DNA of 48,933 bases from Gemmiger formicilis. GTDB lineage: Bacteria > Bacillota_I > Bacilli_A > RFN20 > CAG-826. Shown piece by piece: positions 3,470 through 44,051 of the stretch. A program made the translations under genes and the position numbers. Position 1 is the stretch's first letter; each line of letters starts with the position of its first letter. Under the pieces are notes generated by a model that saw nothing but the letters and a program-made list of their open reading frames with translations, was not told the DNA's origin and did not search any database. Where the stretch lies: assembly GCA_963612735.1 (NCBI GenBank), contig CAVDWX010000062.1:1-48933 (forward strand), read 5' to 3'.

Positions 3470-3471
3470 AA

Positions 3472-5767: not shown

Positions 5768-5772
5768 TACCT

Positions 5773-8424: not shown

Positions 8425-8426
8425 AA

Positions 8427-9962: not shown

Positions 9963-9966
9963 AACA

Positions 9967-11595: not shown

Positions 11596-11614
11596 TTTTA
11601 AATCCTCCTAATAA

Positions 11615-12523: not shown

Positions 12524-12524
12524 A

Positions 12525-13466: not shown

Positions 13467-13469
13467 GGT

Positions 13470-14453: not shown

Positions 14454-14462
14454 GTGTAATAC

Positions 14463-15473: not shown

Positions 15474-15509
15474 ATTTTTGTCCTTTATATTATTAGTTAG
15501 AAGCATTTA

Positions 15510-23038: not shown

Positions 23039-23058
23039 TAGAAAGGAATTAATTTATT

Positions 23059-24144: not shown

Positions 24145-24158
24145 GAGGTAAAAAGAAT

Positions 24159-26785: not shown

Positions 26786-27703
26786 TTATCTAATGATGGT
26801 TCCACTTTCCTCTTTAAACGCTTTTTCGGCGTTTTCTAGATGAGCGATAATTGCACATTTACCTGGACAATGTTTTAGAAAGGATAAACATGCATTTACT
26901 TTTGGATACATTGAACCTTTGGCAAAATAATCTTTGGTTAGATAAGATTCCATTTCATTAATAGTAACATGTTCTAGTTTTACCTGGTCGGGTTTACCAA
27001 AATTAATGCATACATTATCCACAGCCGTAAGAATAACTAAATAATCAGCATGAACGAGTTCTGCGACTTTAGCACTGGCGTAATCTTTATCAACAACCGC
27101 AGCGACACCCACTAATTGATCGTTGTCTTTTATAACAGGGATACCGCCTCCACCAGCGCATATGACGACATCTTTATTTTTAACCAGTGTTAATATGGTA
27201 TCTTTTTCAATTATGTCTATTGGTAGTGGAGAAGGAACTACTCGACGATATCCTCTATTAGCGTCCTCTTTCATTACATAACCTTTAGTTTTAACTATTT
27301 CATCCGATTCTTCTTTCGAATAGAAACTTCCAACTGGTTTAGTTGGATTTAAAAATAATGGATCATTTTTATCGACGAGTACCTGACTAATAACTGTTAC
27401 TACATTACGCTTGACGCCTTCTTTTTTTAAGGCGTTACCAATTGCGTTTTGTAAATGATAGCCAATATATCCTTGTGACATCGCCCCACATTCTGGGAAT
27501 GGCATATCAGGAACACTTTTTGCGTCGGTAAAAGCAAGATTAATCATTCCCACTTGTGGGCCGTTACCATGAACGATAATAACTTCATTGCCATCTCTTA
27601 TTAATTCCACAATATAGGTAGCCACTTTACTGACTAATTCTTTTTGCTCTACTGCATTATTACCTAAGGCATTTCCACCTAAAGAAACAACATATCTTTT
27701 CAT
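26786..27703 (-). CDS. arcC: carbamate kinase
   Basis: Start moved to ATG 27701..27703 (MKRYVVSLGGNALG; GAGGTG RBS). The track start at 27763 is a TTG. Motif IIVHGNGPQVG. It is the counterpart of E. coli YqeA in the ygeW neighbourhood. Confidence 0.9.
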   Translation of the reverse strand: MKRYVVSLGGNALGNNAVEQKELVSKVATYIVELIRDGNEVIIVHGNGPQVGMINLAFTDAKSVPDMPFPECGAMSQGYIGYHLQNAIGNALKKEGVKRNVVTVISQVLVDKNDPLFLNPTKPVGSFYSKEESDEIVKTKGYVMKEDANRGYRRVVPSPLPIDIIEKDTILTLVKNKDVVICAGGGGIPVIKDNDQLVGVAAVVDKDYASAKVAELVHADYLVILTAVDNVCINFGKPDQVKLEHVTINEMESYLTKDYFAKGSMYPKVNACLSFLKHCPGKCAIIAHLENAEKAFKEESGTIIR

Positions 27704-27818
27704 AGACACCTCGCATATACTTTTCTCTATCATTATAAAGGATGAATTTCTTATTTTCATCAATTGTCGATTTTGAACTACATTTGAAAAATTAATTTAA
27801 TCTTTTTTTCTTCTAAAC

Positions 27819-27840
27819 CTTGCGTATACGCGTTCGCAAG
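27819..27840. promoter_or_regulatory. GC-rich inverted repeat in the arcC/mocA divergent intergenic region (candidate operator)
   Basis: CTTGCG-TATACGCGTT-CGCAAG, with an internal ACGCGT palindrome. It stands out in a very AT-rich 215-bp spacer. Confidence 0.3.
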
Positions 27841-27918
27841 ATGTTAACTTACAATTTCACAAATTAGATTGAAGAAAGTGCTAAAATCAATTAAACTAAT
27901 ATATATTAGAGGTCATTA

Positions 27919-28470
27919 ATGATTGATGCAGTCATTCTTGCTGGTGGATGTTCAGTTCGCTTTAAATCGAATAAACTCCTTTTTCTTATAAATGATAAAC
28001 CTCTTATAGTCCATTCTATTGAATCTCTTTTAGATTTTGCTTCTCATATTTATGTGGTGACAGGTCATTATCATAATGAAATATCTGAAGCAATTAAAAA
28101 TATTGATAAGGTCTCAATAATTTATAATTCTAATTATATGAAAGGGATGTTTTCATCTGCTCAAACCGGAATAAAAGAAACCTCGAATGATATTTTACTC
28201 CTTCCCGGAGATTGCTCTTTTGTTGATAAAAAAACAATTCAAAAAATAATTAGTGGAAAAGGGATGATGAGATGCCCTATTTATCAAGGTAAAACCGGAC
28301 ATCCTCTTTTTATCAAGAAAGAACTAAAGGATGAGATATTAAAATTACCAATTGATTCCAATTTAAAAGCATTTCGTGACCAAATTGGATATGAGACTAT
28401 CGAATGTGATGATCCTCATATTTTTATTGATATAGACACATTAAAAGATTATCAAAATCTTATTATTTAA
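27919..28470 (+). CDS. mocA: MobA/MocA-like nucleotidyltransferase (molybdenum cofactor cytidylyltransferase, YgfJ-like)
   Basis: 183 aa. N-terminal AVILAGGCSVRF..NKLL motif. It lies immediately upstream of the Mo-hydroxylase genes. Confidence 0.8.
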   Translation: MIDAVILAGGCSVRFKSNKLLFLINDKPLIVHSIESLLDFASHIYVVTGHYHNEISEAIKNIDKVSIIYNSNYMKGMFSSAQTGIKETSNDILLLPGDCSFVDKKTIQKIISGKGMMRCPIYQGKTGHPLFIKKELKDEILKLPIDSNLKAFRDQIGYETIECDDPHIFIDIDTLKDYQNLII

Positions 28471-28485
28471 GAGAAAGGAACTAAA

Positions 28486-29277
28486 ATGAAGATACAACAA
28501 TATTATCGTCCCACTAGTGTGGAAGATGCTTATCAAAAACTCGTTGAAAATCCTAAAAATGTTTTACTTGCTGGTGGATTTTGGCTTAAGAAAATGAATC
28601 AAAATTGTGAAACAATTATTGATTTATCTCCGTTAAAGCTCAATCAAATTCATGAAAATAAAGATTATGTTGTTGTTGGGAGCATGGTTAGTCAAAGAGA
28701 TTTTGAAAATTCTAAGATTATCCAAAACCTTTTTAATGATATGGCTGGATTTGCCGTTCGAGAAATAATGTCGGTCCCATTTAGAAATAGCGCAACGATT
28801 GGTGGATCAATCATGGGAAGATATCCTTTTTCGGATGTTATAACTGCCTTACTCGCGATGGATGTAACATTAAGGTTTTATCCAAAACAAGAAATTTCGT
28901 TAGTGGATTTTTTAAATTACAAAGGCAAATTTAATTCCATATTAGTTGATATTGTTATTAAAAAAGAAAAAGGAAAAGGCTTCTTTAAAAAAGTAAAAAC
29001 GACAGCCTTAGATTTCCCACTTATTAATATTGCTGTTAGTAAAAGTGATAAATATCGAATTGTTGTTGGTTCACGTCCCATGGTAGCGTCTTTAGCTATT
29101 AATGCGATGGATTACTTAAATAATTTTTCTAATCCGAGTGAAGAAGACTTTATTAAAGCTAGTGAAATTGCGGTGAATGAATTGAATTTCCTTGATAGCA
29201 TCAATATTTCTAAGGATTATCGCATCGCTTTAGCTAAAACTTATATTAAACGTGGTTTATTGGAGGTCAGCCAATAA
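28486..29277 (+). CDS. Mo-hydroxylase (xanthine dehydrogenase family) FAD-binding subunit, set 1
   Basis: 263 aa. CoxM/XdhB-like FAD_binding_5 start (YYRPTSVEDAY...LLAGGFWL) and ATIGGSI. Confidence 0.85.
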   Translation: MKIQQYYRPTSVEDAYQKLVENPKNVLLAGGFWLKKMNQNCETIIDLSPLKLNQIHENKDYVVVGSMVSQRDFENSKIIQNLFNDMAGFAVREIMSVPFRNSATIGGSIMGRYPFSDVITALLAMDVTLRFYPKQEISLVDFLNYKGKFNSILVDIVIKKEKGKGFFKKVKTTALDFPLINIAVSKSDKYRIVVGSRPMVASLAINAMDYLNNFSNPSEEDFIKASEIAVNELNFLDSINISKDYRIALAKTYIKRGLLEVSQ

Positions 29278-29726
29278 TGAAAGTAACATTTTATTTAAAT
29301 GAAATTTTGATGTCATTTGATGTCAAAGAAAGCGAATATCTTGCTGAAACGTTAAGAAAAAGTGGTCTTAAATCGATACGTTTAGGTTGTAATGAAACAT
29401 CTTGTGGAGCTTGCACTGTTTTAATTGATAATAAGCCAGTCTTATCGTGTGGAGTATTGACTGGACAAGTTGAAGGTCACCACATTACAACTGTAGAGGG
29501 AATTCAAGAAGAAGCTCTTAAAATCGCAAATTATTTTGCTGACCAAGGAGCGGATCAATGTGGATTTTGCAACGTTGGTTATGCATTAGTCCTATACGCT
29601 CTAAAAAGAGAATTAAATAATCCTAGTGATGATGAAATTAAAGATTATATCGTTGGTAATTTATGTCGTTGCACTGGCTATCAATCGCAATTAAAAGCTA
29701 TTCGTGCTTACTTGGAGGACAAATAA
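29277..29726 (+). CDS. Mo-hydroxylase [2Fe-2S]-binding small subunit, set 1
   Basis: 149 aa. Cys clusters CNETSCGACTV...SC and CGFC...CRCTGY. Its ATG overlaps the upstream stop (TAATG). Confidence 0.9.
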   Translation: MKVTFYLNEILMSFDVKESEYLAETLRKSGLKSIRLGCNETSCGACTVLIDNKPVLSCGVLTGQVEGHHITTVEGIQEEALKIANYFADQGADQCGFCNVGYALVLYALKRELNNPSDDEIKDYIVGNLCRCTGYQSQLKAIRAYLEDK

Positions 29727-29728
29727 AC

Positions 29729-32035
29729 ATGAGAGTTGTTAATAATAAAACCCATTCAGTGGATGGCAAAGGCCTCATGATGGGTCGCCCTGCTTACACT
29801 GATGATTTAGCGGAACAAAATTCATTAGTTATTAAAATATTACGTTCACCTCATGCTTTTGCTCATATTAAAAATATTGATACTAGCGAAGCGGAAGCAT
29901 TAAATGGTGTTGTTTTGGTTTTGACATATAAAGATGTGCCTCGCGTTTCTTTTTCCCGTGCTGGTCAAGGTTATCCTGAGCCATCTCCTCATGATAAATT
30001 CATTCTCGATGAATATGTGAGATATGTCGGTGATGAAGTAGCATGCGTTGCCGCGATTAATGAAGAAATTGCTGTTGAAGCTCTTAAACTTATCAAGGTT
30101 GATTATGAAATATTAGAACCTGTTTTAGATTTTGAAACCGCTTATGAAAATAAATCGGTTATTCATCCTGAAGATGGAATAAATGAAATGTTCCCGATTG
30201 GCTTTGAACCAAAGAAAAATGTCGCTGCTGCTTATGATATGGTAGTGGGAGACGTCAACAAAGTCATGAACGAATGCGATGTCGTTATTGAACACACCAT
30301 TTATTCACAAGCTCAAGCTCACGCTATGCTTGAACCTCATTCTTCTAATGCTAGATTAGACGAACATAATCGATTAGTTATCTATTCATCGACACAAACA
30401 CCATTCCATATGCGAAGAATTATGTCTACAACTCTAGGCATTCCAATTTCCAAAATTAGATTTATCAAACCTCGTGTTGGCGGTGGTTTTGGTGGAAAGC
30501 AAGCTTTTCATGGCGAATTCTTCTGTGCGTTAGTAACCTTGAAAACAGGTAGACCTACTAGATGCGTCTATACAAGAGAAGAAGTATTTGAATCTTCTTA
30601 TACTCGTCATCCAATGAAAATATCGATTAAATTAGGAGCAACTAAGGAAGGTAGAATTAGAGCCATTGATTGTAACGCTTTAAGCGATACTGGAGCGTAT
30701 GGAGAACATTCATTAACAGTTTTTATGATTGTAGGTAGTAAAGTTTTACCTCTATACAATAAGGTTGATGCCGTTCATTTTGGAGGAAAAGTGGTTTATA
30801 CCAATCACGTTTCCGCTGGTGCGTATAGAGGGTATGGCGCTATTCAAGGAAATTATGCTTTAGAAACAGCAGTGGATATCCTTGCTGAAAAACTTCACAT
30901 GAATCCAATGGTGGTTCGTGAAATTAATTCCATGAGAGAAAAAGAAACCTCTCCTATTTTTGAAATCATGGGAGAAGGTACAAAAGGTACCGCTATGATT
31001 ATGGAAAGTTGTAAATTACCATACTGCATTAAACGCGGTGCAGAATTAATTGATTGGAATAACAATTATCCGCGTAAAGTAGTCGGCCCTCATAAAGTCA
31101 GAGGATACGGAATGGCCATTGCCATGCAAGGAAGTGGCATACCATTTATGGATATGGGAAGCGCTACTATCAAATTGAATGATGGTGGTTCGTATAATTT
31201 AACCGTTGGAGCGACTGATATTGGACAAGGTTCCGATACCATCCTATGCCAAATTGCAGCGGAGGAATTAAGAACTACTGTTGATAAGATATTGATTTAT
31301 TCATCTGATACCGATTTAACCCCGTTTGATTGTGGAGCATATGCTTCATCTACTACTTATATATCCGGTAATGCGACTTGGAATGCTGCAAAAAAGATGA
31401 GAGAAAGATTAGAAAAAGAAGCAGCGGACTATTTAGGTGTGAAGTCAAATAGTATTGAATTTGACGGAGAAAAATTCACTTCAGGAGATAAGACTGTTAC
31501 TTTAAATGAACTATCAATTAAACTCTTATATAATCAAAATCAACATCAAGTTGCAGTGACTGAATCTTATTTTGGAAAAGTATCTCCCCCTCCCTTTATG
31601 GCGGCTTATGCTGAAGTGGAAGTTGATACTGAAACTGGCGAATATGAAGTCTTAAATTATGTTACGGTTACGGATTGTGGCACTACCATTAATCCGATGT
31701 TAGCGAAAGGACAAGTGGAAGGTGGTATTGCTCAAGGTTTAGGCATGGCATGCTTTGAAAGAGTAATCTATGATAAGAAAGGTAAACTTCTTTCTAATAA
31801 TTTCCTTTCATATCATGTGCCTACTCATAAAGAGATTCATCATTACATTACTGAATTTGCGGATTCATATGAACCAACTGGTCCATTTGGGGCAAAATCA
31901 GTGGGGGAAATTGGAATTGATACTCCGCCCGCAGTTATTTGTAATGCTATTTATAACGCTGTTGGAGTAAGAATTAACGATTTGCCAATCACTCCTGAAA
32001 AAATATATTTAGGCATGCAAAAACTTAAAAAATAA
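29729..32035 (+). CDS. Mo-hydroxylase molybdopterin-binding large subunit, set 1 (768 aa)
   Basis: Start moved to ATG 29729 (MRVVNNKTHSVDGKG; GGAGGA 9 nt upstream). The track start at 29663 overlaps the small subunit gene. Motifs RVGGGFGGKQ, GAYRGYG and C-terminal GAKSVGEIG. The substrate cannot be assigned by eye. Confidence 0.9.
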   Translation: MRVVNNKTHSVDGKGLMMGRPAYTDDLAEQNSLVIKILRSPHAFAHIKNIDTSEAEALNGVVLVLTYKDVPRVSFSRAGQGYPEPSPHDKFILDEYVRYVGDEVACVAAINEEIAVEALKLIKVDYEILEPVLDFETAYENKSVIHPEDGINEMFPIGFEPKKNVAAAYDMVVGDVNKVMNECDVVIEHTIYSQAQAHAMLEPHSSNARLDEHNRLVIYSSTQTPFHMRRIMSTTLGIPISKIRFIKPRVGGGFGGKQAFHGEFFCALVTLKTGRPTRCVYTREEVFESSYTRHPMKISIKLGATKEGRIRAIDCNALSDTGAYGEHSLTVFMIVGSKVLPLYNKVDAVHFGGKVVYTNHVSAGAYRGYGAIQGNYALETAVDILAEKLHMNPMVVREINSMREKETSPIFEIMGEGTKGTAMIMESCKLPYCIKRGAELIDWNNNYPRKVVGPHKVRGYGMAIAMQGSGIPFMDMGSATIKLNDGGSYNLTVGATDIGQGSDTILCQIAAEELRTTVDKILIYSSDTDLTPFDCGAYASSTTYISGNATWNAAKKMRERLEKEAADYLGVKSNSIEFDGEKFTSGDKTVTLNELSIKLLYNQNQHQVAVTESYFGKVSPPPFMAAYAEVEVDTETGEYEVLNYVTVTDCGTTINPMLAKGQVEGGIAQGLGMACFERVIYDKKGKLLSNNFLSYHVPTHKEIHHYITEFADSYEPTGPFGAKSVGEIGIDTPPAVICNAIYNAVGVRINDLPITPEKIYLGMQKLKK

Positions 32036-32052
32036 TGCAAAACGAGGTTTAA

Positions 32053-33360
32053 ATGAACGATTTATTAATTAAAAATGGTTTAGTTTATATTGATAATGAA
32101 TTTAAAAAGATAAATATCGGTATCAAAGATGAGCTCATATCTTATCTTGGTGAAGATGAGCTTCCTTCTTTAAAAGTTATCGACGCTAGTGGAAAGAAAA
32201 TCATTCCCGGCTTAATCGATAGTCATGTTCATTTTGAACTTTATTGTGGCACTATTACCTCTAGAGATGATTTTAGAAGTGGAACTATTTCTGGAGCGTA
32301 TGGAGGGGTCACCACTATAATTGACTTTTTAGACCCTTCTAGCACGGTTGAGGAACTCGTAACTACTTATAATGAAAGAAAAAAATTAGCCAAAAAAAGC
32401 GTTACGGATTATTGCTTTCACGCTTGCATTAAGGAACCTAAATGTGACTTAGAAGATTATGTTAAGAAAGTCAAAGAATTAGGAATGAATACCATTAAAT
32501 TATTCACTACTTATTCTGAAACACATCGAAGAACATATGATAAAGATATTATAAAATTATTGGAACTATCAAAAAAATATCATATTTTAATCACTGCTCA
32601 TATTGAAAATGATGAGCTTATTAATCATGATGATAATTTGCTTTGTGTAGATATAAATAAGGCCCGACCATCCATTGCTGAAACTAGTGAAGCCTTAAAA
32701 TTAGCATTGTACGCTAAAGAGACAGGCGGTTATTTATATATGGTTCATTGTAGCAGTGGTAAAACACTTAAATACCTTGTTGAACAATTTGGTGACATCT
32801 TGAATAAAAATTTATTCATCGAAAGCTGCCCGCAATATTTTATGTTTGATGATAGTGAATTTAATAAACCCAGCGGTGCTTTGTTCACTTTTGCTCCACC
32901 TTTAAGAAGTCGTGGTGAAAAAGAATTATTAAGTCAATATTATCGATATATAAATACGATAGGTACTGATCACTGTTCTTTTACCAAAAAGGATAAATTA
33001 TCTCATCCTTTATTAAATGGACACCCTCTTGGAATAGGTGGAATTGAATCTTCTTTCATGGTTATGCATTCATTATTCGGTGATGACATGATTGACAAAA
33101 TGAGCAAAAATATCGCTGATTTGATGGGAATTAAGAAAAAAGGTAGCATAAAAATTGGAAATTATGCTGATTTTGTTTTCTATATTGAAAAGGATGTAAT
33201 CATTGATAAACCTCATTCTAATGTCGATTATTCGATATATGAAGGGTTACATAGTGACATTGAAATTACTGATACTATAATTAGAGGTAGATATATTATT
33301 AATAACAAAAAATACATCGAAAATGTTGGGAGACTTTTAAATGAAGAAAGCACTGATTAA
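32053..33360 (+). CDS. hyuA: cyclic amidohydrolase of the dihydropyrimidinase/D-hydantoinase type (HyuA/YgeZ-like)
   Basis: 435 aa. Metal ligands DSHVHF, IKLFTTY (carboxylated Lys position), AHIEND, VHCSS and TDHCSF. CPQYFMFD matches the HyuA region as I remember it. Confidence 0.8.
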   Translation: MNDLLIKNGLVYIDNEFKKINIGIKDELISYLGEDELPSLKVIDASGKKIIPGLIDSHVHFELYCGTITSRDDFRSGTISGAYGGVTTIIDFLDPSSTVEELVTTYNERKKLAKKSVTDYCFHACIKEPKCDLEDYVKKVKELGMNTIKLFTTYSETHRRTYDKDIIKLLELSKKYHILITAHIENDELINHDDNLLCVDINKARPSIAETSEALKLALYAKETGGYLYMVHCSSGKTLKYLVEQFGDILNKNLFIESCPQYFMFDDSEFNKPSGALFTFAPPLRSRGEKELLSQYYRYINTIGTDHCSFTKKDKLSHPLLNGHPLGIGGIESSFMVMHSLFGDDMIDKMSKNIADLMGIKKKGSIKIGNYADFVFYIEKDVIIDKPHSNVDYSIYEGLHSDIEITDTIIRGRYIINNKKYIENVGRLLNEESTD

Positions 33361-34636: not shown

Positions 34637-34638
34637 TT

Positions 34639-35727: not shown

Positions 35728-35732
35728 AATAT

Positions 35733-37829
35733 ATGCGAAATCAATTTCTAACATCAGTAAAAAAAGTCGATAACGAAGAGAAAATGTCTGGTGAAGCCTT
35801 ATTCACAGATGATATCCCCATGGATGGTGTTTTAAACGCAATCATGATAAGGAGTAGCATAGCTAGAGGCAAAATTAATGAAATTGAAGTTCCCCCTCTT
35901 CCTGATGGCTATTATTTCATCAGCGCAAAAGATATCGTTAAAGAAAATGTATGCAATATTATCTTTTCAGATTGGCCAGTTTTCGCTGATAAAGAAGTTA
36001 ATTATTTAGGTGAAACTATTGGCTTATTAATTGGTGAAGATAAAAACATTTTACTGGAATTATCGCATCAAATTTATGTTGATTATGAAGAAGAAACGCC
36101 AGTATATGATATGGTTAATAGTTATATTCATAAAGAATTCACTAAAGGCGATATTATTAAAATAAAAAAAGATGCAATTAAAGTAATTAGTGAATCTTTT
36201 GAAACTGGTTATCAAGAGCAAGTCTATTTAGAAACTCAAGGGATGCTCATGTATTTAGACGACGATAAGATTACAGTTAAAGCTTCTATGCAATGTCCAT
36301 TTTATGTTAAAAAAGCTATTGTTAGAACTCTTGGCTGTCCTGAAGATAAAGTAAGAGTTATTCAACCTGCAGTGGGTGGAGCATTTGGTGGTAAGGAACA
36401 TTTCCCCTCCCTTATGGCAGCTCAATTAGCCACAGCGATTGTTAAAATTAAAAAACCCATCAAAATGATTTTTGATCGAAGTGAAGACATTGCTTTTACT
36501 ACAAAAAGACATCCTAGTAAAACAACGATATCGGCTTATATCGATGATAACAACAATATCTTAGGAATGAAAATTGTGGTGGGTATTGATGGAGGTGCCT
36601 ATAAAGGGTGTTCAGGAGTAGTTTTATCGCGTGCTCTTATCGCTTGTACAAATACGTATACCTTTGATAATTTAGAAGTATATGGCGATGCTTATTGCAC
36701 TAACAAAGTTCCTTCTGCTGCCTTTAGAGGATTTGGTTCGCCTCAAACCATATTTGCTATTGAAATGTTTATGCATCATTTGGCAAAAGAATTAGGCGTT
36801 GATCCTTTATTATTAAGAGAAAAATATATGGTCAAAACAGGAGATATTACAGCTACTTCTGGTATATTTAGAGATGATATTATTCTTGATAAAATCGAGC
36901 ATAAAGCGATGGAAATGTCTCACTATAAAGAAAAAATAAAAGAGTATAGTAAGCCAAATTGTTATAAAGGAATTGGCATGTCATTCTTTTTACATGGCTG
37001 TGGATTTACCGGTAGTGGAGAAAGCGACATCATCAAAGCTAAAGTGAGAATGAATAAGGATGAGAATGGAATAGTTAGGTTTTATACTTCTCAAGTTGAT
37101 TTTGGACAAGGCAATAGAACTACACTTAAAAGAATCGTTGTTGATACCCTTCAAATTCCAGAAGATAAGGTTATATATGACGCTCCTGATACTGACTTAA
37201 CTTTAAATAGTGGACCCACTGCCGCATCTAGAACTACGATTATCGTGGGTGGATTGGTGGCTAAGGCTGCAAAGCATTTAAAATCGATATGGAAAGATGG
37301 AGAATTTCAAGAAATCATCGAGCCATATGTTGGTCCTAGTTATATTAAATGGGATGAAAATACTATGCAAGGTGATGCTTATCCAGGCTATGCTTGGGGC
37401 GCTAATGTGGTTGAAGTAGATGTAGATCCGATTACTTATCAAGTTAAGATTTTGGGTTGCTGGTCGGTTTATGATGTCGGTCATTGTATTGATGAAAGAA
37501 TATGTTACGGGCAAGCTGATGGTGGCTTAGTTCAAGCATTAGGTTATGGCTATATGGAAAATTGTGTTGCAGTAGATGGCAAGTTTAGACAAAAAACTTT
37601 GTCAGATTATATTATTCCTACTACCAAAGATATTCCTACTTTAGAAACTGCTTTCATAGATAACCCGTTTAAATTTGGAGCCTTTGGGGCAAAAGGAGCA
37701 GGAGAACTTACTTTTGTTGGTGGAGCCCCCGCTTTAGCCTTAGCTATTGAAAACGCAATTAATAAAAAAATAAATAAAATTCCTGCAAATCCTGAATATA
37801 TTATGGAGTTAATGAATAATGAAGATTAA
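35733..37829 (+). CDS. Mo-hydroxylase molybdopterin-binding large subunit, set 2 (698 aa, shorter than set 1)
   Basis: Motifs AVGGAFGGKE, AAFRGFG and GAKGAGELT. The N-terminus KKVDNEEKMSGEALFTDDI aligns with the usual R-x-D-x3-K-x-TG-x-A-x-Y-x-D start. It begins 5 nt after the PreA-like gene. No obvious Shine-Dalgarno (SD) sequence. Confidence 0.85.
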   Translation: MRNQFLTSVKKVDNEEKMSGEALFTDDIPMDGVLNAIMIRSSIARGKINEIEVPPLPDGYYFISAKDIVKENVCNIIFSDWPVFADKEVNYLGETIGLLIGEDKNILLELSHQIYVDYEEETPVYDMVNSYIHKEFTKGDIIKIKKDAIKVISESFETGYQEQVYLETQGMLMYLDDDKITVKASMQCPFYVKKAIVRTLGCPEDKVRVIQPAVGGAFGGKEHFPSLMAAQLATAIVKIKKPIKMIFDRSEDIAFTTKRHPSKTTISAYIDDNNNILGMKIVVGIDGGAYKGCSGVVLSRALIACTNTYTFDNLEVYGDAYCTNKVPSAAFRGFGSPQTIFAIEMFMHHLAKELGVDPLLLREKYMVKTGDITATSGIFRDDIILDKIEHKAMEMSHYKEKIKEYSKPNCYKGIGMSFFLHGCGFTGSGESDIIKAKVRMNKDENGIVRFYTSQVDFGQGNRTTLKRIVVDTLQIPEDKVIYDAPDTDLTLNSGPTAASRTTIIVGGLVAKAAKHLKSIWKDGEFQEIIEPYVGPSYIKWDENTMQGDAYPGYAWGANVVEVDVDPITYQVKILGCWSVYDVGHCIDERICYGQADGGLVQALGYGYMENCVAVDGKFRQKTLSDYIIPTTKDIPTLETAFIDNPFKFGAFGAKGAGELTFVGGAPALALAIENAINKKINKIPANPEYIMELMNNED

Positions 37830-38292
37830 TTTCACGCTTAATCATAAGCCGCTAGAAGTCGATGTCGATCCATCGATGAGGCTTTTAGATTTACTTAGAG
37901 ATGTTTTAAATTTAAAAGGTGTTAAAGAAGGATGTGGGGAAGGTGCATGTGGTGCATGTACTGTTTTAGTTGATAAACAATGTTACGATTCCTGCCTTAC
38001 TCCCGTGGCTAATATAATTAATAAAGATATATTAACAATTGAAGGATTTAAGTTAACAAAAGAATATCGAATCATCGCTGATGCTTTTGCTGATATGGGA
38101 GGAAGCCAATGCGGTTTTTGTACCCCTGGAATGATTATGGCAACGTATGGTTTATTTTTGCATAACCCTCATCCAAGTGAAGAAGAAATACGCGTTGCAC
38201 TATCTGGCAATTTATGCCGATGCACAGGCTATCAGGCTATTATTAATGCTGTTTTAGAAGCTAGTGAAAAAGGAGACGGATTATGGAAATAA
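37819..38292 (+). CDS. Mo-hydroxylase [2Fe-2S]-binding small subunit, set 2
   Basis: 157 aa. Cys clusters CGEGACGACTV...SC and CGFCTPG...CRCTGY. 11-nt overlap with the large subunit gene. Confidence 0.9.
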   Translation: MKINFTLNHKPLEVDVDPSMRLLDLLRDVLNLKGVKEGCGEGACGACTVLVDKQCYDSCLTPVANIINKDILTIEGFKLTKEYRIIADAFADMGGSQCGFCTPGMIMATYGLFLHNPHPSEEEIRVALSGNLCRCTGYQAIINAVLEASEKGDGLWK

Positions 38293-39134
38293 AACATTTC
38301 ATTCCAACTTCCTTAAAAGAAGCACTTGAAATTATTTCTAATCATGATTGTTTTATCTTAGCTGGTGGAACGGATTTGATGGTTCAAAAACATAAAAGTA
38401 AAGGACTTCTTCCTAACTTTGATAAAGATGTCATTTATATCTCTAATTTAAAAGAATTAAATTATGAATATATTGATGAAAACGGTGATTATCATATTGG
38501 CTCAACTGTTAAATATGTTCAATTAGAAAATAGCAAAATTTGTCCTCAAATATTAAAAGATATAATTGTTGAAATTGCCTCACCAAATATTCGAAATATG
38601 GCGACACTAGCAGGAAATATTGGAAATGCATCTCCTGCTGGAGATTCTCTAGTGGGGCTTTATCTATTAGATGCTAAAATCAAATTGTCATCGTTAAAAG
38701 GCGAAAGAATTCTTCCGATAAATGAATTCATTAAAGGCGTTAGAAAAATTGATAGGCATTTTGATGAATTGATTACTGAAATTATTATTCCTAATGGATA
38801 TCAAAAACTAACTTATTATTGGAAGAAAGTTGGCTCTCGCGCTGCCGAATCAATTTCTAAATTGTCCTTTTTAGGAGCATATGAAATTAAAGACAACCAT
38901 TTAGTGGATTTCCGCCTTGCATTTGGAAGCGTTTCAATTACTGTTGTAAGGAATAAAGATATTGAAAAAGATTATATAGGGTTAGAGGTACCGCTCTTAC
39001 CTTCTATAATAGATAGTATAGTATCAAGGTATTATACGATTATTAATCCAATTACTGATCAAAGATCAAACAAGGATTATCGGAAAAAGGTGGCAATGAA
39101 TTTGCTCACCCATTTCTTAACTAACATCAAATAA
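38283..39134 (+). CDS. Mo-hydroxylase FAD-binding subunit, set 2 (YgfM/XdhB-like)
   Basis: 283 aa. Motifs ILAGGTDLMV and ATLAGNIGNASPAGDS. 10-nt overlap with the small subunit gene. Confidence 0.85.
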   Translation: MEIKHFIPTSLKEALEIISNHDCFILAGGTDLMVQKHKSKGLLPNFDKDVIYISNLKELNYEYIDENGDYHIGSTVKYVQLENSKICPQILKDIIVEIASPNIRNMATLAGNIGNASPAGDSLVGLYLLDAKIKLSSLKGERILPINEFIKGVRKIDRHFDELITEIIIPNGYQKLTYYWKKVGSRAAESISKLSFLGAYEIKDNHLVDFRLAFGSVSITVVRNKDIEKDYIGLEVPLLPSIIDSIVSRYYTIINPITDQRSNKDYRKKVAMNLLTHFLTNIK

Positions 39135-39144
39135 GGAGGCGATA

Positions 39145-40389
39145 ATGAGCTACATTAAAGGTTATGTTTGTACTATATGTGGAAAGTTTTTTCTCCCAGA
39201 AGAAGTTGATTTAACTTGTCCAAATTGTGGGGAAAAAGGAATTCTCGATGTCGTTTTTGACTATGAAGCACTTAAAAAAGTCTTAACGAAAGATTATTTT
39301 AAGAATAATAAAGATTATTCAATGTGGAGATATGCTCCTCTAATGGGTATAGAAAATACCCATGTTAACGAAATGCTTAGAATTGGTTGGACACCATTAA
39401 TTAAGTCGAGAAATCTAGCAAAAGAGCTAGGAATTAAAGAACTTTTCATAAAAGATGATGGTTTAAACCCAAGCGGTTCAAGTAAAGATAGAGCCTCTGG
39501 AGTAGCAGTTTTAAATGCGATTGAAGCGGGAGCGGATACCATATCTTGTTCTTCAACTGGCAACGCCGCATCTAGCTGCGCATGTCATGCTGCTCATATG
39601 GGACTTAAATCAGTTATCTTTGTTCCAAAACGCGCTCCAATTGGAAAATTAACACAAATATCGATGTATGGAGCAACTCTAATTGTTGTGGACGGAGATT
39701 ATAAAGCAGCTTTTTCATTATCTAAAGAAGCGATTAAAAAATATCATTGGTATAATCGAAATGCCGCAATTAATCCTTTTATGGTTGAAGGCAAAAAAAC
39801 TGTCTCTTTAGAAATTGCCGAACAACTCGATTTCAAACCAACTGATTGGGTATGTGTTTCAGTCGGTGATGGCTGCACTATTGGTGGAGTTTATAAAGGC
39901 TTCTCTGATTTATATAAATTAGGATTTATTGATTATATTCCACGTATATTAGGTGTTCAATCCACCGGCTGTGAGCCATTTGTTGCTGCTAATAAGCAAA
40001 ATGCTCCACTTGTGGAATGCGAAGAAAATACTATCGCAGATTCAATTGCGGTTGGCATTCCTCGCAATCCTATTAAAGCTTTAAATGCTGTTAAAAATTC
40101 TCATGGAGCCTGGATAAGTGTTCCTGATGAAGATATTTTAAAAGCGATGGCTTTATTAGGTAAAAAAGAAGGTGTCTTTGGCGAACCAGCGGGTGTTACT
40201 TCTCTTGCTGGATTAATCAAAGCGCTAGAAACTGGCATTATTAAAAAGGATGAAACTGTGACTATAATAGTGACAGGTAATGGTTTAAAAGATCCTTTGA
40301 ATGCACAAAAAGCCATTATGCATCCTGAAATTATGAAACCAAATATAAATGAACTTGACAAATATTTAAAAGAAAAAGGAGTGATTTAG
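39145..40389 (+). CDS. threonine synthase-like fold-type II PLP enzyme with an N-terminal zinc ribbon
   Basis: 414 aa. Zinc ribbon CTICGKFF...CPNCGEKG...VVFDY, as in archaeal/Thermotoga-type ThrC. PLP-Lys motif NPSGSSKDR. Gly-rich loop SVGDG. GGAGG RBS. Confidence 0.75.
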   Translation: MSYIKGYVCTICGKFFLPEEVDLTCPNCGEKGILDVVFDYEALKKVLTKDYFKNNKDYSMWRYAPLMGIENTHVNEMLRIGWTPLIKSRNLAKELGIKELFIKDDGLNPSGSSKDRASGVAVLNAIEAGADTISCSSTGNAASSCACHAAHMGLKSVIFVPKRAPIGKLTQISMYGATLIVVDGDYKAAFSLSKEAIKKYHWYNRNAAINPFMVEGKKTVSLEIAEQLDFKPTDWVCVSVGDGCTIGGVYKGFSDLYKLGFIDYIPRILGVQSTGCEPFVAANKQNAPLVECEENTIADSIAVGIPRNPIKALNAVKNSHGAWISVPDEDILKAMALLGKKEGVFGEPAGVTSLAGLIKALETGIIKKDETVTIIVTGNGLKDPLNAQKAIMHPEIMKPNINELDKYLKEKGVI

Positions 40390-40390
40390 T

Positions 40391-41758
40391 ATGTCAAAAA
40401 TTCCATTTGGTCCAACTTATGATGAGATGTTAAATCCTAATCATCAAGATCCAGAAGTCAGAAAGCTTGCTTCAAAGGCATTAAAAGAAAATGAACTTGA
40501 TCCGATTAATCTATTTAACATTACTTGGAAAAATGAAAAAGGCGAAGTAAGAAAAATAGTTCTCCCCAAAGAATTGACTGGTGTCGATGCAAATATAGTG
40601 GTCTTACTTGGCAAAGATTTTCCTTCAGGCTCACATAAAGTTGGTCCTGCTTATTCAACATTAATTGAGGGCTGTGTTGATGGAGATATTATTCCTGGTA
40701 AACACACCATCTTAGGGCCATCAACTGGTAACTTTGGTATTGGAGTTAGCTACATTGCTAATCTAATGAAATATGATGCCATTGTTATTATGCCTGATAA
40801 CATGTCTAAAGAAAGATACGAAAGAATTCAAAGATATGGAGCGAAATTAGATCTTACTCCTGGTAGTGAATCTGATGTTATTTTAACGTTAGAAAGAACA
40901 TATGAATTAAAGAAAAATCCTAACTACCGCACCTTAGCGCAGTTCGAACTACTTCCAAATTATCGTTTCCATCGTCATGTAACAGGTAATTCTTGTGTTG
41001 AAGCTGTTAAGGGTATTGGAAATGGACGTATTGCTTGCTTCTGTAGCGCTCCTGGTAGCGCTGGCACCTTAGCGGCAGGTGATCAAATTAAAGCTGTCTT
41101 CCCTGAAGCTAAAATCGTGGCTTTAGAACCGCATGAATGTTCTACTCTTACCAATGGTGGACGTGGACAACATCGTATTGAAGGTATCGGAGATAAGATG
41201 TGTACACTTATTCACAATGTTTTGACTACTGATTTTATTACTCAAATTATTGATGATGATTGTGTTAGAGGATTAGAAGTCATCCATGAAGGTAGTGAAG
41301 TTTTAGAAAAGCATGGTATTTCTAAACAAGTAGCGGAATCTTTAAAAGATTTATTTGGCGTTTCTGGAATTTGTAATATTTTAGGCGCTATTAAAATGGC
41401 TAAATATTTGCGTTTAGGACCCGATGATAATGTGGTTACTATTGCCACTGATAGTTTTGATAGATATGAATCAGTCATTCAAAATCTCCATCAACGCGAA
41501 TTAGAAGTAACCGATAATGTTTTAGAAAGATGGTATGAAGATATCTTCCTTGGCGCTGACACTAATTACGTTTTAGATACACGTGGTAATGAAGCCAAAG
41601 AACTATTATTTGCTCAAAAAGAAAGAGATTGGCTCCCATTTGGTTATACCAAAAACTATTTAGATTCAATGAGAAAAATGTCCTTCTGGGACCATGAATA
41701 TCATAAAATTGATGAATATGACGAAAAGATTAAAAGAATGCGAGGTAAAGAAATTTAA
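40391..41758 (+). CDS. fold-type II PLP enzyme, CysK/CBS-like core with a long C-terminal extension (possibly of the OrtB-type lyase/thiolase group)
   Basis: 455 aa. Candidate PLP-Lys in FPSGSHKVG. Motifs [23 protein letters not shown] and HRIEGIGD. The OrtB relationship is a recollection-based guess, not verified. Confidence 0.65.
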
Positions 41759-42969
41759 TGAAAATCCCTTTTAGTGAAGTACTCGAAAAAGCCAAATCAT
41801 ATGAAAAAGATATGACCAAGTTTCTTCGCGATATGATTGCTATTCCTAGTGAATCATGTGGAGAAGAAAAAGTAATTTTAAGAATTAAAGAAGAAATGGA
41901 AAAAGTAGGTTTTGATAAGATTGTTATCGATCCTATGGGAAACATTTTAGGCTATGTTGGTCACGGCTCACACCTCATCGGTATGGACGCCCATATCGAC
42001 ACAGTTGGAATTGGAGAAATCAAAAACTGGAAGTTTGATCCATACACTGGTTTTGAAGATGATGTCTATATCGGTGGAAGAGGTGCCTCTGATCAAGAAG
42101 GTGGTATGGCCTCTATGGTCTATGCTGCAAAAATCATCAAAGATTTACATTTAGAAGATGATTACACCTTAGTAATTACTGGCACTGTTCAAGAAGAAGA
42201 CTGCGACGGTCTATGTTGGCAATATATTATTGAACAAGATAAAGTTAAACCAGAGTTTGTCTTAATTACTGAACCAACTTCTTGTCGAATTTATCGCGGT
42301 CATCGTGGAAGAATGGAAATTAAAGTTTCCACGCGCGGCATTTCTTGCCATGGCAGCGCTCCCGAAAGAGGAGTTAATGCTATCTATATGATGGCACCTA
42401 TCATTGAAGATATTAAAAAGCTTAACGAAAGACTAAAGGATGATCCATTCTTAGGAAAAGGGACAGTCACTATTTCTCAAATCTTCCATAAATCACCATC
42501 TCGATGTGCTGTAGCAGATGGATGCTGGATTTCTTTAGATCGAAGATTGACCGATGGAGAAACTTATTTATCAGCGATTAAAGAAATAGAAGAGTTACCC
42601 TCAGTTAAAGCCGCGAATGCCGTAGTGGAAATGTATGATTATGATCGACCTGCTTACACTGGATTAGTTTATCCAACGAAAGCGTTCTTCCCAACATGGG
42701 TTATTCCAGAAGATGATATTTTATGTCGTTCTATGAAAGAAGGATATGAAGAATTATTTAATGAAGAACCAATTATCGATAAATGGACCTTCTCCACTAA
42801 TGGAGTTTCCATTATGGGAAGATTTGGCATTAAATGTATTGGCTTTGGCCCAGGCGATGAAAAAGAAGCCCATGCTCCAAATGAAAAAACAAGGAAAGCC
42901 GATCTTGTTAAATGTGCTGCATTATATGCCGTTATGCCTCTTCTATATTTAGAAAATTTAAAAAAATAA
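41758..42969 (+). CDS. ygeY: YgeY-family M20 metallohydrolase (deacylase / N-carbamoyl-amino-acid-amidohydrolase-like)
   Basis: 403 aa. Near-collinear with E. coli YgeY as I remember it: [62 protein letters not shown] and [13 protein letters not shown]. Its ATG overlaps the upstream stop. Confidence 0.9.
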
Positions 42970-42989
42970 AGGAGTTTTACACTAAATTT

Positions 42990-43994
42990 ATGGAAAAAGT
43001 TACAAAAATGGAACCTTTATTCAAAGGTCGCCATCTCATCACACTTGAAGAATGGAGCAAACCAGAAATCGACAAATTACTCGAAGTCAGTAAGGAACTT
43101 AAAGAAATGTTCCACAATGATATTCCCACTCCATTTTTAGAAAACAAAACTGGATTTTTAATGTTCTTTGAACAATCCACAAGAACTCGTAATTCATTTG
43201 AAGCTGGAATGGCTGAATTAGGAGGACATGCTACGTTCTTAGATACTTCAATGATGCAAATCGCTCACGGAGAAAGCGCTAAAGACACCGCTACAATTTT
43301 ATCCTCTTTTGGACATATGATCGCTTGTCGTTATTGCAACTGGGGATTAGGCAATAAATATATTCGTGAAATGGCGAAATGGTCAACCGTGCCAGTTATC
43401 AATTTACAATGTGATTTGTTCCATCCTATGCAAGCGCTTGCTGATTTGATGACCATGCAAGAAGTTTTCCCAACTACTAAACATTTAAAAGTGTCTATTA
43501 TTTGGGCTTACGCTACTACTCATAAAAAACCAATTTCAGTTCCTCTTTCTCAAATTCTATTATTCCCTAGATATGGAATGGATGTTACTTTAGCTTATCC
43601 TGAAGGATACGATTTACCTGATTGGGCCATTGAAAAAGCGAAAAAGAACGCTATTGAAAATGGTGGTTCATTTAGAATTACACATGATATGGAAGAAGCA
43701 TATCGCGGAGCGGATGTTGTCTTTCCTAAAAACTGGGGTTCATGGGTTACAAATCAATCAACCGCGGTCGTCGATGATTTATTAGAATCTTATAAGAGTT
43801 GGAAATGTACTGAAGCGATGATGGCTTTAGCAAATCCTGGCTGCAAATTCATGCATGCTCTTCCTGCTGATAGAAACCACGAAGTCGAAGATTCTGTTAT
43901 CGATGGTCCTCAATCTATTGTCTATCAAGAGGCTGAAAATCGTTTACATACCGCTAAAGCTGTTATGTGCATGGTTGTAGGTGGCAAGAAATAG
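42990..43994 (+). CDS. ygeW: YgeW-type (knotted) carbamoyltransferase
   Basis: Start moved to ATG 42990 (MEKVTKMEPLF; AAAGGAG 15 nt upstream). The track start at 42912 overlaps ygeY. Motifs STRTR, QIAHGES, INLQCDLFHPMQALADL, GMDVTLAYPEGYDLP, GGSFRITHDMEEAYRGADVVFPKNWGSW and HALPADR. Confidence 0.9.
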   Translation: MEKVTKMEPLFKGRHLITLEEWSKPEIDKLLEVSKELKEMFHNDIPTPFLENKTGFLMFFEQSTRTRNSFEAGMAELGGHATFLDTSMMQIAHGESAKDTATILSSFGHMIACRYCNWGLGNKYIREMAKWSTVPVINLQCDLFHPMQALADLMTMQEVFPTTKHLKVSIIWAYATTHKKPISVPLSQILLFPRYGMDVTLAYPEGYDLPDWAIEKAKKNAIENGGSFRITHDMEEAYRGADVVFPKNWGSWVTNQSTAVVDDLLESYKSWKCTEAMMALANPGCKFMHALPADRNHEVEDSVIDGPQSIVYQEAENRLHTAKAVMCMVVGGKK

Positions 43995-44018: not shown

Positions 44019-44051
44019 GGAGTGTTTCTTATTTGAAACGCTCCTTTTTTT
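44019..44051 (+). terminator. intrinsic terminator ending the purine island operon
   Basis: GGAGTGTTTC-TTATTT-GAAACGCTCC (10-bp stem, one G-U pair) followed by TTTTTTT, 25 nt after the ygeW stop. Confidence 0.8.

Follow-up and report, generated by a model that had tools for sequence, protein, structure and literature searches.

The 48,933-nucleotide contig CAVDWX010000062.1 of the Gemmiger formicilis assembly GCA_963612735.1 (the window, in what follows) carries, between positions 26,786 and 43,994, a gene cluster which we interpret, with a probability of roughly 0.6, as a variant of the reductive uric-acid pathway. In this variant a pair of adjacent pyridoxal phosphate (PLP) enzymes, one resembling threonine synthase (ThrC) and the other cysteine synthase (CysK), would replace the single enzyme YgeX at the exit of the pathway, where 2,3-diaminopropionate (DAP) is broken down. 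The assignment of the locus to the reductive uric-acid pathway, taken by itself, is considerably safer and we regard it as very probable. An earlier reading of the sequence (the original prediction) had placed the locus among purine or uric-acid fermentation clusters and linked it to the E. coli ygeW-xdhD neighbourhood, and family scans, a YgeY protein 68% identical to that of E. coli and the purine genes of sister loci all bear this out.

The pathway was reconstituted in 2025 by Li et al. (bioRxiv 10.1101/2025.05.19.654654; PMC12507026) and Liu et al. (bioRxiv 10.1101/2025.04.24.650524) and has been summarised in a commentary (PMC12990295), so the description of its chemistry as unsettled in the original prediction is outdated. 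The route runs from urate through 2,8-dioxopurine and its dihydro form to ureidomethyl-hydantoin, 2,3-diureidopropionate, DAP and finally pyruvate. Urate is converted to 2,8-dioxopurine by XdhD-YgfM in E. coli or XdhAC in C. sporogenes, YgfK dearomatises 2,8-dioxopurine, ring opening by SsnA gives ureidomethyl-hydantoin and HyuA yields 2,3-diureidopropionate; YgeW then removes one ureido group by phosphorolysis, the carbamoyl phosphate so formed is used by carbamate kinase to make ATP, hydrolysis of the second ureido group by YgeY leaves DAP, and YgeX converts DAP to pyruvate and ammonia (PMC12507026; 10.1101/2025.04.24.650524). According to the 2025 pathway papers a separate xanthine dehydrogenase (XDH) takes hypoxanthine and xanthine to urate, XDH and the urate-reducing DOPDH being the normal purine-entry pair, and carbon leaves as pyruvate in all organisms studied. 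In canonical clusters ygeX lies inside the cluster, and its product accepts both D- and L-DAP (Li et al., PMC12507026). The two published versions of the pathway disagree on which ureido group departs first; the field counts this point and the stereochemistry, for which an R (D-type) configuration has been proposed, among its open questions (PMC12990295). In C. difficile, Li et al. reported UacX, a PydA homologue, in place of YgfK and the hydrolase UacY in place of YgeW and carbamate kinase (PMC12507026). Two elements that the original prediction had presented as new wiring are thus already accounted for: the exchange of YgfK for a PreA-like reductase is the published UacX swap, and the second molybdenum (Mo) hydroxylase of the window, taken there for a replacement, is what the usual combination of XDH and DOPDH calls for.

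The PLP enzyme pair

Public annotation names the two proteins of the pair threonine synthase and cysteine synthase. The ThrC-like protein does pass the TIGR00260 thrC model (214 bits, cut-off 167), and among proteins of solved structure it comes closest to threonine synthases of the short bacterial type (PDB 1UIM, 2ZSJ, 2D1F and 6CGQ), with which it has the fold and about 35-40% overall similarity in common. In contrast to these enzymes it has an added N-terminal four-cysteine zinc ribbon, which is invariant, and changed phosphate ligands. Aligned with T. thermophilus ThrC, it proves to have kept both the PLP lysine and the S-T-G-N loop. The ligands of the O-phosphohomoserine phosphate in the T. 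thermophilus enzyme we take to be T88, N154, S155, R160 and N188, the residue numbering having been checked by counting along the alignment. All 72 of the 72 ThrC-like members compared have Ala for T88, Asn or Ser for N154, Ala for S155, Leu or Met for R160 and Asp for N188, so that four of the five ligands are lost and an invariant Asp is gained; in addition, Q164 is Lys and G190 is Cys. Judged by these residues, the ThrC-like protein is no threonine synthase. A pocket that has lost the Arg and gained an Asp appears unsuited to a phosphate ester and would suit a cationic side chain, for example the beta-ammonium group of DAP. YgeX finds its best match in the window in this same protein, a weak one at 25% identity (E = 1e-9). 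Convergence of the ThrC-like protein on YgeX was considered and rejected, the Asn-loop position occupied by Asp120 in YgeX being Thr in the alignment.

The CysK-like protein, of 455 residues, lies far below the curated models for its namesakes (cysK 134 bits, cut-off 351; cysM 86 bits, cut-off 394). It retains the catalytic core, which is made up of the PLP lysine, the Asn loop (STGNF, in which Phe stands for Thr73), Gln142 and the phosphate loop GSAGT. This core is invariant among 81 sequences, as are 180 of the 455 positions in all. The core is flanked by helical extensions of about 60 residues at the N-terminus and about 95 at the C-terminus. An AlphaFold (AF2) model built from an alignment of relatives at 25-53% identity reached a predicted local distance difference test (pLDDT) score of 94, while an alignment of relatives at 80% identity or more gave 64. 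The best folds for the better model are CysK and beta-cyanoalanine synthase, with a template modelling (TM) score of about 0.85 over some 325 residues, and none of the PDB matches in this search covers the extensions. As to substrate specificity, the fold search returned CysK-type enzymes only. CysK, CysM, beta-cyanoalanine synthase, SbnA and DcsD are the best matches in sequence and structure, at 25-30% identity; what sets the CysK-like protein apart from them is its long extensions, its conservation at 74% identity or more across orders and its ThrC-like partner gene. Full-length relatives at 32-46% identity are found among 1.8 billion representative proteins, and none of ten scanned relatives (28% to 54% identity) reaches any curated family cut-off. 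An exact-sequence look-up found no record of the protein. We also considered OrtB and discarded it: the NCBIfam scan gave cysteine-synthase-type models only, and a small partner gene of the OrtA kind is absent.

Like YgeX (DpaL), the two proteins are of fold-type II among PLP enzymes, and they would stand at its position in the pathway. The pair differs from YgeX in consisting of two genes rather than one, and neither of its members is an orthologue of YgeX: they score 69 and 27 bits on the DAP-lyase model NF006058, against a cut-off of 276.

Conservation of the pair among purine genes

When genomes, one for each species, were scanned with the CysK-like protein, there were at least 600 pattern matches and at least 573 confirmed relatives. 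The neighbourhood counts that follow refer to the best 80 of these at least 573 loci, each covered over at most 10 kb on either side, plus the window (n = 81); gene content was determined by tblastn with proteins of the window and of E. coli and by clustering of all open reading frames (ORFs). The loci come from rumen and gut metagenome-assembled genomes labelled 'Erysipelotrichaceae' or Bacilli, from Izemoplasmatales and Acholeplasmataceae and from a few Clostridia, and include the cultured or complete genomes of Mycoplasmatota strain zrk2, Ca. Izemoplasma sp. B36 and Desulfitobacterium sp. Sab5. Single loci are cited by number (L) where they have to be told apart.

The ThrC-like gene stands near the CysK-like gene in 76 of the 81 loci, and in the remaining five the CysK-like gene is close to a contig end. 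YgeY accompanies the pair in 72 loci, the carbamoyltransferase in 66 (60 of the window type and six true YgeW), the subunits of the second Mo hydroxylase (set 2) in about 61, and SsnA and the hydantoinase in 55 each; either UacX (52 loci) or YgfK (3 loci) is present in 55. YgeX was detected by tblastn in none of the 81, all weak YgeX matches landing on the ThrC-like gene at 22-26% identity. The suggestion that two PLP enzymes stand in the place of ygeX thus held up in the gene-neighbourhood comparison, with YgeX in 0 of the 80 related loci and a ThrC-like partner wherever the contig allows one.

The CysK-like protein is 74-89% identical across the best 80 loci (median 76%), and its minimum is the highest among the compared cluster proteins. 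Median identities are 76% for YgeY and 78% for the carbamoyltransferase, both with far lower minima, 55% for SsnA and 51% for the hydantoinase. In Desulfitobacterium sp. Sab5 (L069) the pair lies amid xdhABC, ygfK, a gene for a UacT-like permease, ssnA, a YgeV-like regulator gene, ygeY, arcC and hyuA, and ygeX was not found in the fetched stretch. In 26 loci, mostly from relatives of Izemoplasmatales and Acholeplasmataceae, an adenine deaminase gene separates the FAD subunit gene from the ThrC-like one (e.g. L044:7044-8759; also L040 and L053), and a CDA-type, guanine-deaminase-like gene lies beside the cluster in 22 (e.g. L044:14120-14602). Dozens of species-level genomes show the genes in the same order, and chance falls far short of explaining the arrangement. 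The surveyed loci are purine clusters, and the ThrC-like/CysK-like pair is the consistent counterpart of YgeX in them. In L074 the pair stands alone, apart from other purine genes; there and in L080, where its context is odd, the neighbours are unrelated genes only. As a possible RidA signal of released aminoacrylate we found only a 125-residue ORF in L034, which had no family match.

Layout of the cluster

According to the ORF listing and Pfam and NCBIfam scans, 14 tightly packed genes occupy positions 27919-43994 on the plus strand, and a carbamate kinase gene is transcribed divergently on the minus strand. The 14 genes read as one operon because they overlap or are separated by gaps of at most 20 nucleotides. 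The features, with the profile matches or alternative starts behind them, are:

26786-27703, minus strand: arcC, carbamate kinase of the ArcC/YqeA type (longest ORF to 27763)
27704-27918, no strand: divergent intergenic region between arcC and the operon, read from the sequence
27919-28470, plus strand: MocA/MobA-like NTP transferase (PF12804, TIGR03310)
28486-29277, plus strand: FAD subunit of Mo hydroxylase set 1, YgfM-like (PF00941)
29277-29726, plus strand: 2Fe-2S subunit of Mo hydroxylase set 1 (PF01799 + PF00111)
29729-32035, plus strand: Mo subunit of set 1 (Mo1), XdhD-like (longest ORF from 29663)
32053-33360, plus strand: cyclic amidohydrolase of the hydantoinase/dihydropyrimidinase type (TIGR02033)
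33341-34636, plus strand: SsnA-like amidohydrolase (NF005540)
34639-35727, plus strand: UacX-type reductase (PF01180 + Fer4; longest ORF from 34618)
35733-37829, plus strand: Mo subunit of set 2 (Mo2), of the classic xanthine-dehydrogenase type (PF02738 + PF20256)
37819-38292, plus strand: 2Fe-2S subunit of Mo hydroxylase set 2 (PF01799)
38283-39134, plus strand: FAD subunit of Mo hydroxylase set 2 (PF00941 + PF03450)
39145-40389, plus strand: ThrC-like PLP enzyme (PF00291)
40391-41758, plus strand: CysK-like PLP enzyme, 455 residues (PF00291)
41758-42969, plus strand: YgeY, M20 hydrolase (TIGR03526)
42990-43994, plus strand: shortened YgeW-like carbamoyltransferase of the Asp/Orn type, or 'mini-YgeW' (longest ORF from 42912)
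44019-44044, plus strand: intrinsic-terminator-like hairpin closing the operon (10-bp stem with 5 GC pairs, then TTTTTTT)

Every gene of the original prediction was confirmed by the Pfam and NCBIfam scans, in the order given there, as were the divergent carbamate kinase (TIGR00746 match) and the terminator at 44019, a hairpin with a T-run; the plus-strand string had been counted as 16 genes and contains 14. For four genes the longest ORF probably includes extra sequence ahead of the real start, which would be 27703 for arcC, 29729 for Mo1, 34639 for uacX and 42990 for the carbamoyltransferase, and a GAGGTG lies upstream of the arcC ATG at 27703. The G+C content of the window is about 32%, and we take the host to be a low-G+C bacterium, not in culture, that resembles Bacilli or Erysipelotrichaceae. 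The region between arcC and the operon has a partial palindrome, TTGCGTATACGCGTTCGCAA, at 27821-27840, which may possibly be an operator; the cluster has no regulator gene.

Searches by tblastn with E. coli YgeX, YgfK, YqeB, YqeC, XanQ, UacT and GhxQ gave no match across the window, which agrees with the earlier statement that YgfK, YgeX, a purine permease and YqeB/YqeC are absent from it. With the divergent promoter region on one side and the terminator on the other bounding the operon, no ygfK or ygeX lies just beyond the window in the same operon. No annotated ORF of the window resembles SelD, a result obtained with no SelD probe and with several ORFs lacking a family match. YqeB and YqeC, sought as marks of a selenium-dependent Mo hydroxylase trait, were not found in the window by tblastn. 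The absence of permease and maturation genes from the window says little, because sister loci have XdhC-type, NTPase or UacT-type genes nearby, such as an XdhC-type gene in L072 and a YqeC-like gene in L058.

Enzymes acting on the purine ring

The Mo1 subunit is 37.5% identical to E. coli XdhD over 794 residues and 31.6% identical to XdhA, and it has the insertion otherwise found only in XdhD, within which a GEG motif aligns with XdhD Glu606. Li et al. have singled out Glu606 as the residue that orients urate (PMC12507026). The best E. coli match of the set 1 FAD subunit is YgfM, at 26% identity. Mo2 lacks the XdhD insertion and has in its alignment the GGAFGGKE motif with the Glu that corresponds to bovine Glu802 and marks the classic XDH site for purine hydroxylation; it is 24% identical to each of E. 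coli XdhA and XdhD. The accompanying 2Fe-2S and FAD subunits of set 2 are 45% identical to E. coli XdhC and 28% identical to E. coli XdhB, respectively. Set 1 is therefore best described as XdhD/YgfM-like and a candidate for the urate-reducing DOPDH, and set 2 as a putative xanthine dehydrogenase, an assignment that is not certain. The MocA/MobA-like protein (PF12804, 92 bits; TIGR03310 MocA/YgfJ, 120 bits with a cut-off of 186), 27% identical to E. coli MocA, is probably a molybdenum-cofactor cytidylyltransferase.

The reductase encoded at 34639-35727 consists of a DHODH/PydA-like FMN domain (PF01180) and two 4Fe-4S motifs, has no FAD/NAD domain, and finds its closest solved structures in DHODH 1B and DPD. 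C. difficile UacX, with which it was compared by description, is likewise a PydA/DHODH-like FMN and Fe-S protein of the same architecture; it probably takes its electrons from ferredoxin and not from NAD(P)H (PMC12507026). At the level of architecture and synteny, the window's enzyme matches the UacX type and would take the role of YgfK (DOPOR).

The SsnA-like protein scores 361 bits on NF005540 (cut-off 444; next family 138) and 331 on a second SsnA model (cut-off 455), and it is 28% identical to E. coli SsnA. The hydantoinase-like protein scores 218 bits on TIGR02033 (cut-off 393), is likewise 28% identical to E. coli HyuA and has a syntenic counterpart in 53 related loci; some sister loci have an E. 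coli-type HyuA (40% identical) in its place. In L028 (165-4235) the set 1 Mo subunit gene is followed directly by ssnA, the hydantoinase gene being absent from an otherwise intact cluster.

Enzymes acting on the ureido groups

YgeY (TIGR03526, 679 bits, cut-off 321) and carbamate kinase (TIGR00746, 381 bits, cut-off 358; 51% identical to E. coli YqeA) both lie above their curated cut-offs. The carbamoyltransferase, 37% identical to E. coli YgeW, reaches 210 and 196 bits on two YgeW models with cut-offs of 453 and 500, and 259 bits on the ornithine carbamoyltransferase (OTC) model, with a cut-off of 281. Ornithine is bound in OTC by the motifs DxxxSMG and HCLP; the corresponding positions here read PKNWGSW and HALP. 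We have accordingly rejected an identity as OTC, the protein falling under the OTC cut-off and having neither the SMG nor the HCLP motif. An alignment of E. coli YgeW with 59 window-type and six YgeW-type homologues shows the YgeW motifs PKxW, WAYxxxxKPxSVP, NLQCDxxHPxQ and GGSF to be present and four YgeW insertions to be missing, and in six related loci a genuine YgeW stands in the place of this protein. The window's carbamoyltransferase is thus best seen, from its motifs, as a shortened relative of YgeW and not as a YgeW equivalog. The original prediction had called it YgeW: the relationship stands by the motifs, but with 210 bits against 453 the call of a true YgeW does not. The profile searches as a whole came out in the same divided way, with YgeY and carbamate kinase above their cut-offs and SsnA, the hydantoinase, YgeW and MocA below theirs. 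In nine loci a gene for a LigT/2'-5' RNA ligase-like protein lies 3' of the carbamoyltransferase gene.

Proposed route

The first six steps of the route are borrowed by analogy from experiments on the E. coli, C. sporogenes and C. difficile homologues. Set 2, of the XDH type, would oxidise hypoxanthine and xanthine to urate, and the three-subunit set 1, of the XdhD/YgfM type, would strip the C6 oxygen to give 2,8-dioxopurine. The UacX-type FMN/Fe-S reductase would then dearomatise 2,8-dioxopurine, after which the SsnA-like protein would open the reduced purine ring and the hydantoinase-like protein the ureidomethyl-hydantoin to give 2,3-diureidopropionate. The shortened YgeW-like enzyme would phosphorolyse one ureido group, with carbamate kinase converting the carbamoyl phosphate to ATP, and YgeY would hydrolyse the remaining ureido group to leave DAP. 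In the seventh step the ThrC-like and CysK-like proteins would jointly take the place of YgeX and convert DAP to pyruvate and ammonia. The identities of the genes and the co-occurrence of the pair with the pathway in loci without YgeX are observed, and from them we infer the chemistry of this last step. One enzyme, most likely the ThrC-like protein with its invariant Asp, would bind DAP or invert its stereochemistry, and the other would carry out beta-elimination through aminoacrylate, possibly in a complex with the first.

This route has most of its enzyme families in common with the E. coli cluster (xdhD-ygfM, ygfK, ssnA, hyuA, ygeW, yqeA, ygeY and ygeX). It differs from that cluster in having a UacX-type reductase for YgfK and the PLP pair for YgeX, an XdhD counterpart that is split into 2Fe-2S and Mo subunits, a carbamoyltransferase without the four YgeW insertions, and counterparts of SsnA and HyuA that are only 28% identical; YqeB, YqeC, YgeV and a permease are absent from the window. 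The C. difficile system has UacY for YgeW and the kinase and keeps YgeX, whereas the locus described here keeps the ATP-yielding carbamoyltransferase and kinase and has no YgeX.

Loci that are probably of the same kind have been met before. Wasmund et al. [quoted passage not shown] In the cultured Xianfuyuplasma coldseepsis zrk13, Zheng et al. (2021, PMC8397711) found by transcriptomics that a cluster, G4Z02_01105-01195, was co-induced; it comprises XDH genes, adenine and guanine deaminases, an NTPase, a nucleotidyltransferase, an 'ornithine carbamoyltransferase', a 'cysteine synthase', a 'threonine synthase' and an aminohydrolase, the last four of which the authors took as amino-acid metabolism. 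Matched by product names, this composition fits the Izemoplasmatales form of the cluster, which in our survey has the gene order of the window plus an adenine deaminase and a CDA-type deaminase. From their composition both published loci are probably of the same cluster type as ours, and on that reading the pair is expressed along with purine genes in zrk13. Both reports predate the elucidation of the pathway, and the PLP pair was not tied to purine breakdown in either.

Several observations weigh against the route as we have drawn it. E. coli manages with a single enzyme, and our route does not explain why two should be required here. Replacement of a YgeX that tolerates both D- and L-DAP by two proteins would be explained if inversion and elimination were divided between them, or if they formed a heteromeric lyase; the split into a racemase and a lyase is a guess on our part. 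The negative result for YgeX covers about 10 kb on each side of each related locus rather than whole genomes. The inducer of the zrk13 cluster was 100 mM thiosulfate, which was also growth-promoting (PMC8397711), and this hints at a link to sulfur of which our explanation makes no use. Among the more distant CysK-like relatives, those at 45-46% identity adjoin a second PALP-family gene outside any purine context (L083:6644-9395; L084:3-2898, P0244 contigs), so that a long CysK-like protein with a second PLP enzyme may be a general module whose chemistry is broader than DAP cleavage. The SsnA-like, hydantoinase-like and carbamoyltransferase proteins all lie under curated equivalog cut-offs. Finally, the identity of DOPDH is ambiguous between sets 1 and 2: in L034, L038, L045 and L072 set 2 is the sole Mo set within the fetched 10 kb, and Mo2 could also fill the DOPDH role, our comparison of Mo1 and Mo2 having been made with E. 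coli XdhA and XdhD rather than with clostridial DOPDH sequences. Apart from the cases mentioned, one CysK-like relative at 32-46% identity lies near a YgeW-like gene and the contexts of two others are uninformative; on the other contig that carries the relative seen in L084, the next gene encodes a radical-SAM protein.

Alternative explanations

One alternative is that the end of the cluster is assimilatory, so that purine carbon and nitrogen feed the supply of amino acids and not pyruvate. The CysK-like protein could use sulfide or thiosulfate to trap an aminoacrylate derived from DAP or albizziin, which would yield cysteine or S-sulfocysteine, or the ThrC-like protein could add water to give serine. 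The complete beta-replacement core of the CysK-like protein, its fold of the cysteine and beta-cyanoalanine synthases and the thiosulfate induction of an X. coldseepsis cluster of matching composition (PMC8397711) are in line with the first version. As to the second, the loci themselves offer a fitting gene: an Fe-S L-serine dehydratase (SDH_alpha, SDH_beta) directly follows the carbamoyltransferase in twelve loci (L014-L023, L028; e.g. L023:13692-14915). Threonine synthases are, moreover, fold-type II enzymes that naturally add water at C-beta. However, the serine dehydratase is itself followed by cysS and nusG, and these twelve loci are closely related, so the synteny may be coincidental; as a sign of a serine product we have set it aside as probably coincidental, given the housekeeping genes that follow. 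The clusters contain no serine acetyltransferase and no sulfur-assimilation gene, the rest of the cluster is energy-yielding through carbamate kinase, and pyruvate is the exit of carbon in the organisms studied. We consider an assimilatory ending unlikely.

It is in our estimate just as unlikely that a gene for YgeX, or for a different DAP lyase, lies in some other part of the genome and that the pair is an accessory. Its task could then be to clear a wrong mono-ureido isomer or enantiomer (albizziin versus 3-amino-2-ureidopropionate, D versus L) or to detoxify DAP or aminoacrylate, and such side isomers are plausible given that the published versions of the pathway differ on the first ureido loss (PMC12990295). 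The limited stretch covered in each related genome leaves room for such a lyase, and the solitary pair of L074 also speaks for an accessory. Set against this, ygeX sits within canonical clusters and yet is absent from the fetched stretches of all 80 related loci, including the otherwise E. coli-like one of Desulfitobacterium sp. Sab5, and the minimum identity of the CysK-like protein (74%), at the top of the compared cluster proteins, suits a core step of the pathway better than an accessory one.

That the cluster serves a Pyd-like route and degrades some other kind of nitrogen heterocycle, pyrimidines or hydantoins for example, is highly improbable. A PydA-like reductase, a dihydropyrimidinase-like amidohydrolase and an M20 ureido-hydrolase do resemble the reductive pyrimidine pathway, and the SsnA-like and hydantoinase-like proteins fall short of equivalog status, but YgeY is too close to its E. 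coli counterpart, SsnA is by far the top family of the SsnA-like protein, the XdhD-type Mo1 has the Glu606 insertion and is joined by a second, XDH-type enzyme, and sister clusters include adenine- and guanine-type deaminases and, in L069, a UacT-like urate permease. We can practically dismiss the view that the PLP genes are an ordinary biosynthetic threonine synthase and cysteine synthase placed in the operon by chance, which the TIGR00260 score and the public names would favour, in view of the replacement of four of the five phosphate ligands in every ThrC-like member, the low score and 155 extra residues of the CysK-like protein, and the strict synteny with purine genes across several Bacillota orders and Mycoplasmatota-type lineages.

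Remainder of the window

The other ORFs of the window comprise a mannoside-utilisation locus, gdhA, DUF1015, serC, a serA-like gene and genes for a lipoprotein, metG and an AAA ATPase. The mannoside or mannan-oligosaccharide utilisation locus (1540-15506, minus strand) encodes two GH130 phosphorylases, two ABC permeases and a LacI regulator, together with large proteins of 883, 511, 542 and 1180 residues that had no family match. A string of gdhA, DUF1015, serC and a serA-like gene follows at 20469-25331 on the plus strand, and the DUF1015 protein may be functionally linked to the flanking glutamate dehydrogenase and serine-pathway genes. An AAA_14/DUF4143 ATPase gene at 46110-47438 (minus strand), downstream of metG, bears no relation to the cluster.

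Significance of the variant

The pathway itself and the UacX swap were already known. The replacement of YgeX by the pair, the shortened YgeW and the three-subunit form of XdhD were not found in the literature searched, which took in the two pathway papers, their 2022 precursors, the commentary and later citing work. The way in which the pathway has been surveyed bears on this. Li et al. scored a neighbourhood 'YgeX' by the whole PALP Pfam family (PMC12507026), which would hide a substitution of the pair for YgeX, and Liu et al. (10.1101/2025.04.24.650524) and Kasahara et al. used identity thresholds on YgeX and YgeW. Published surveys either apply BLAST identity thresholds to YgeX, YgeW, YgfK, HyuA and SsnA or need ygeX among five markers. 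A locus with neither YgeX nor YgfK, with a 37% relative of YgeW and with SsnA and HyuA counterparts at 28% would probably be missed or misread by them, a judgement that rests on identities to E. coli proteins where the surveys used C. sporogenes queries. If such loci are missed, rumen Bacilli and Izemoplasmatales are under-counted as purine degraders.

The anaerobic uric-acid pathway is relevant to gout and hyperuricaemia, to the recycling of nitrogen in uricotelic animals and to the turnover of DNA and purines in sediments. We give even odds to the proposition that the pair makes up a PLP system of two enzymes that has so far escaped notice, possibly as a heteromer or as a stereo-inverting enzyme coupled with an eliminating one, and that serves as the exit of the purine pathway in a large bacterial group (at least 573 relatives). 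This group would take in rumen and gut Bacilli, Izemoplasmatales, Acholeplasmataceae, some Clostridia and Desulfitobacteria. The names in wide circulation for the proteins of the pair, 'threonine synthase' and 'cysteine synthase', are probably mistaken. If our interpretation is true, the pair would represent an undescribed terminal chemistry for the purine pathway, and it would offer a handle on the stereochemistry and fate of DAP, which the field lists as unresolved (PMC12990295).

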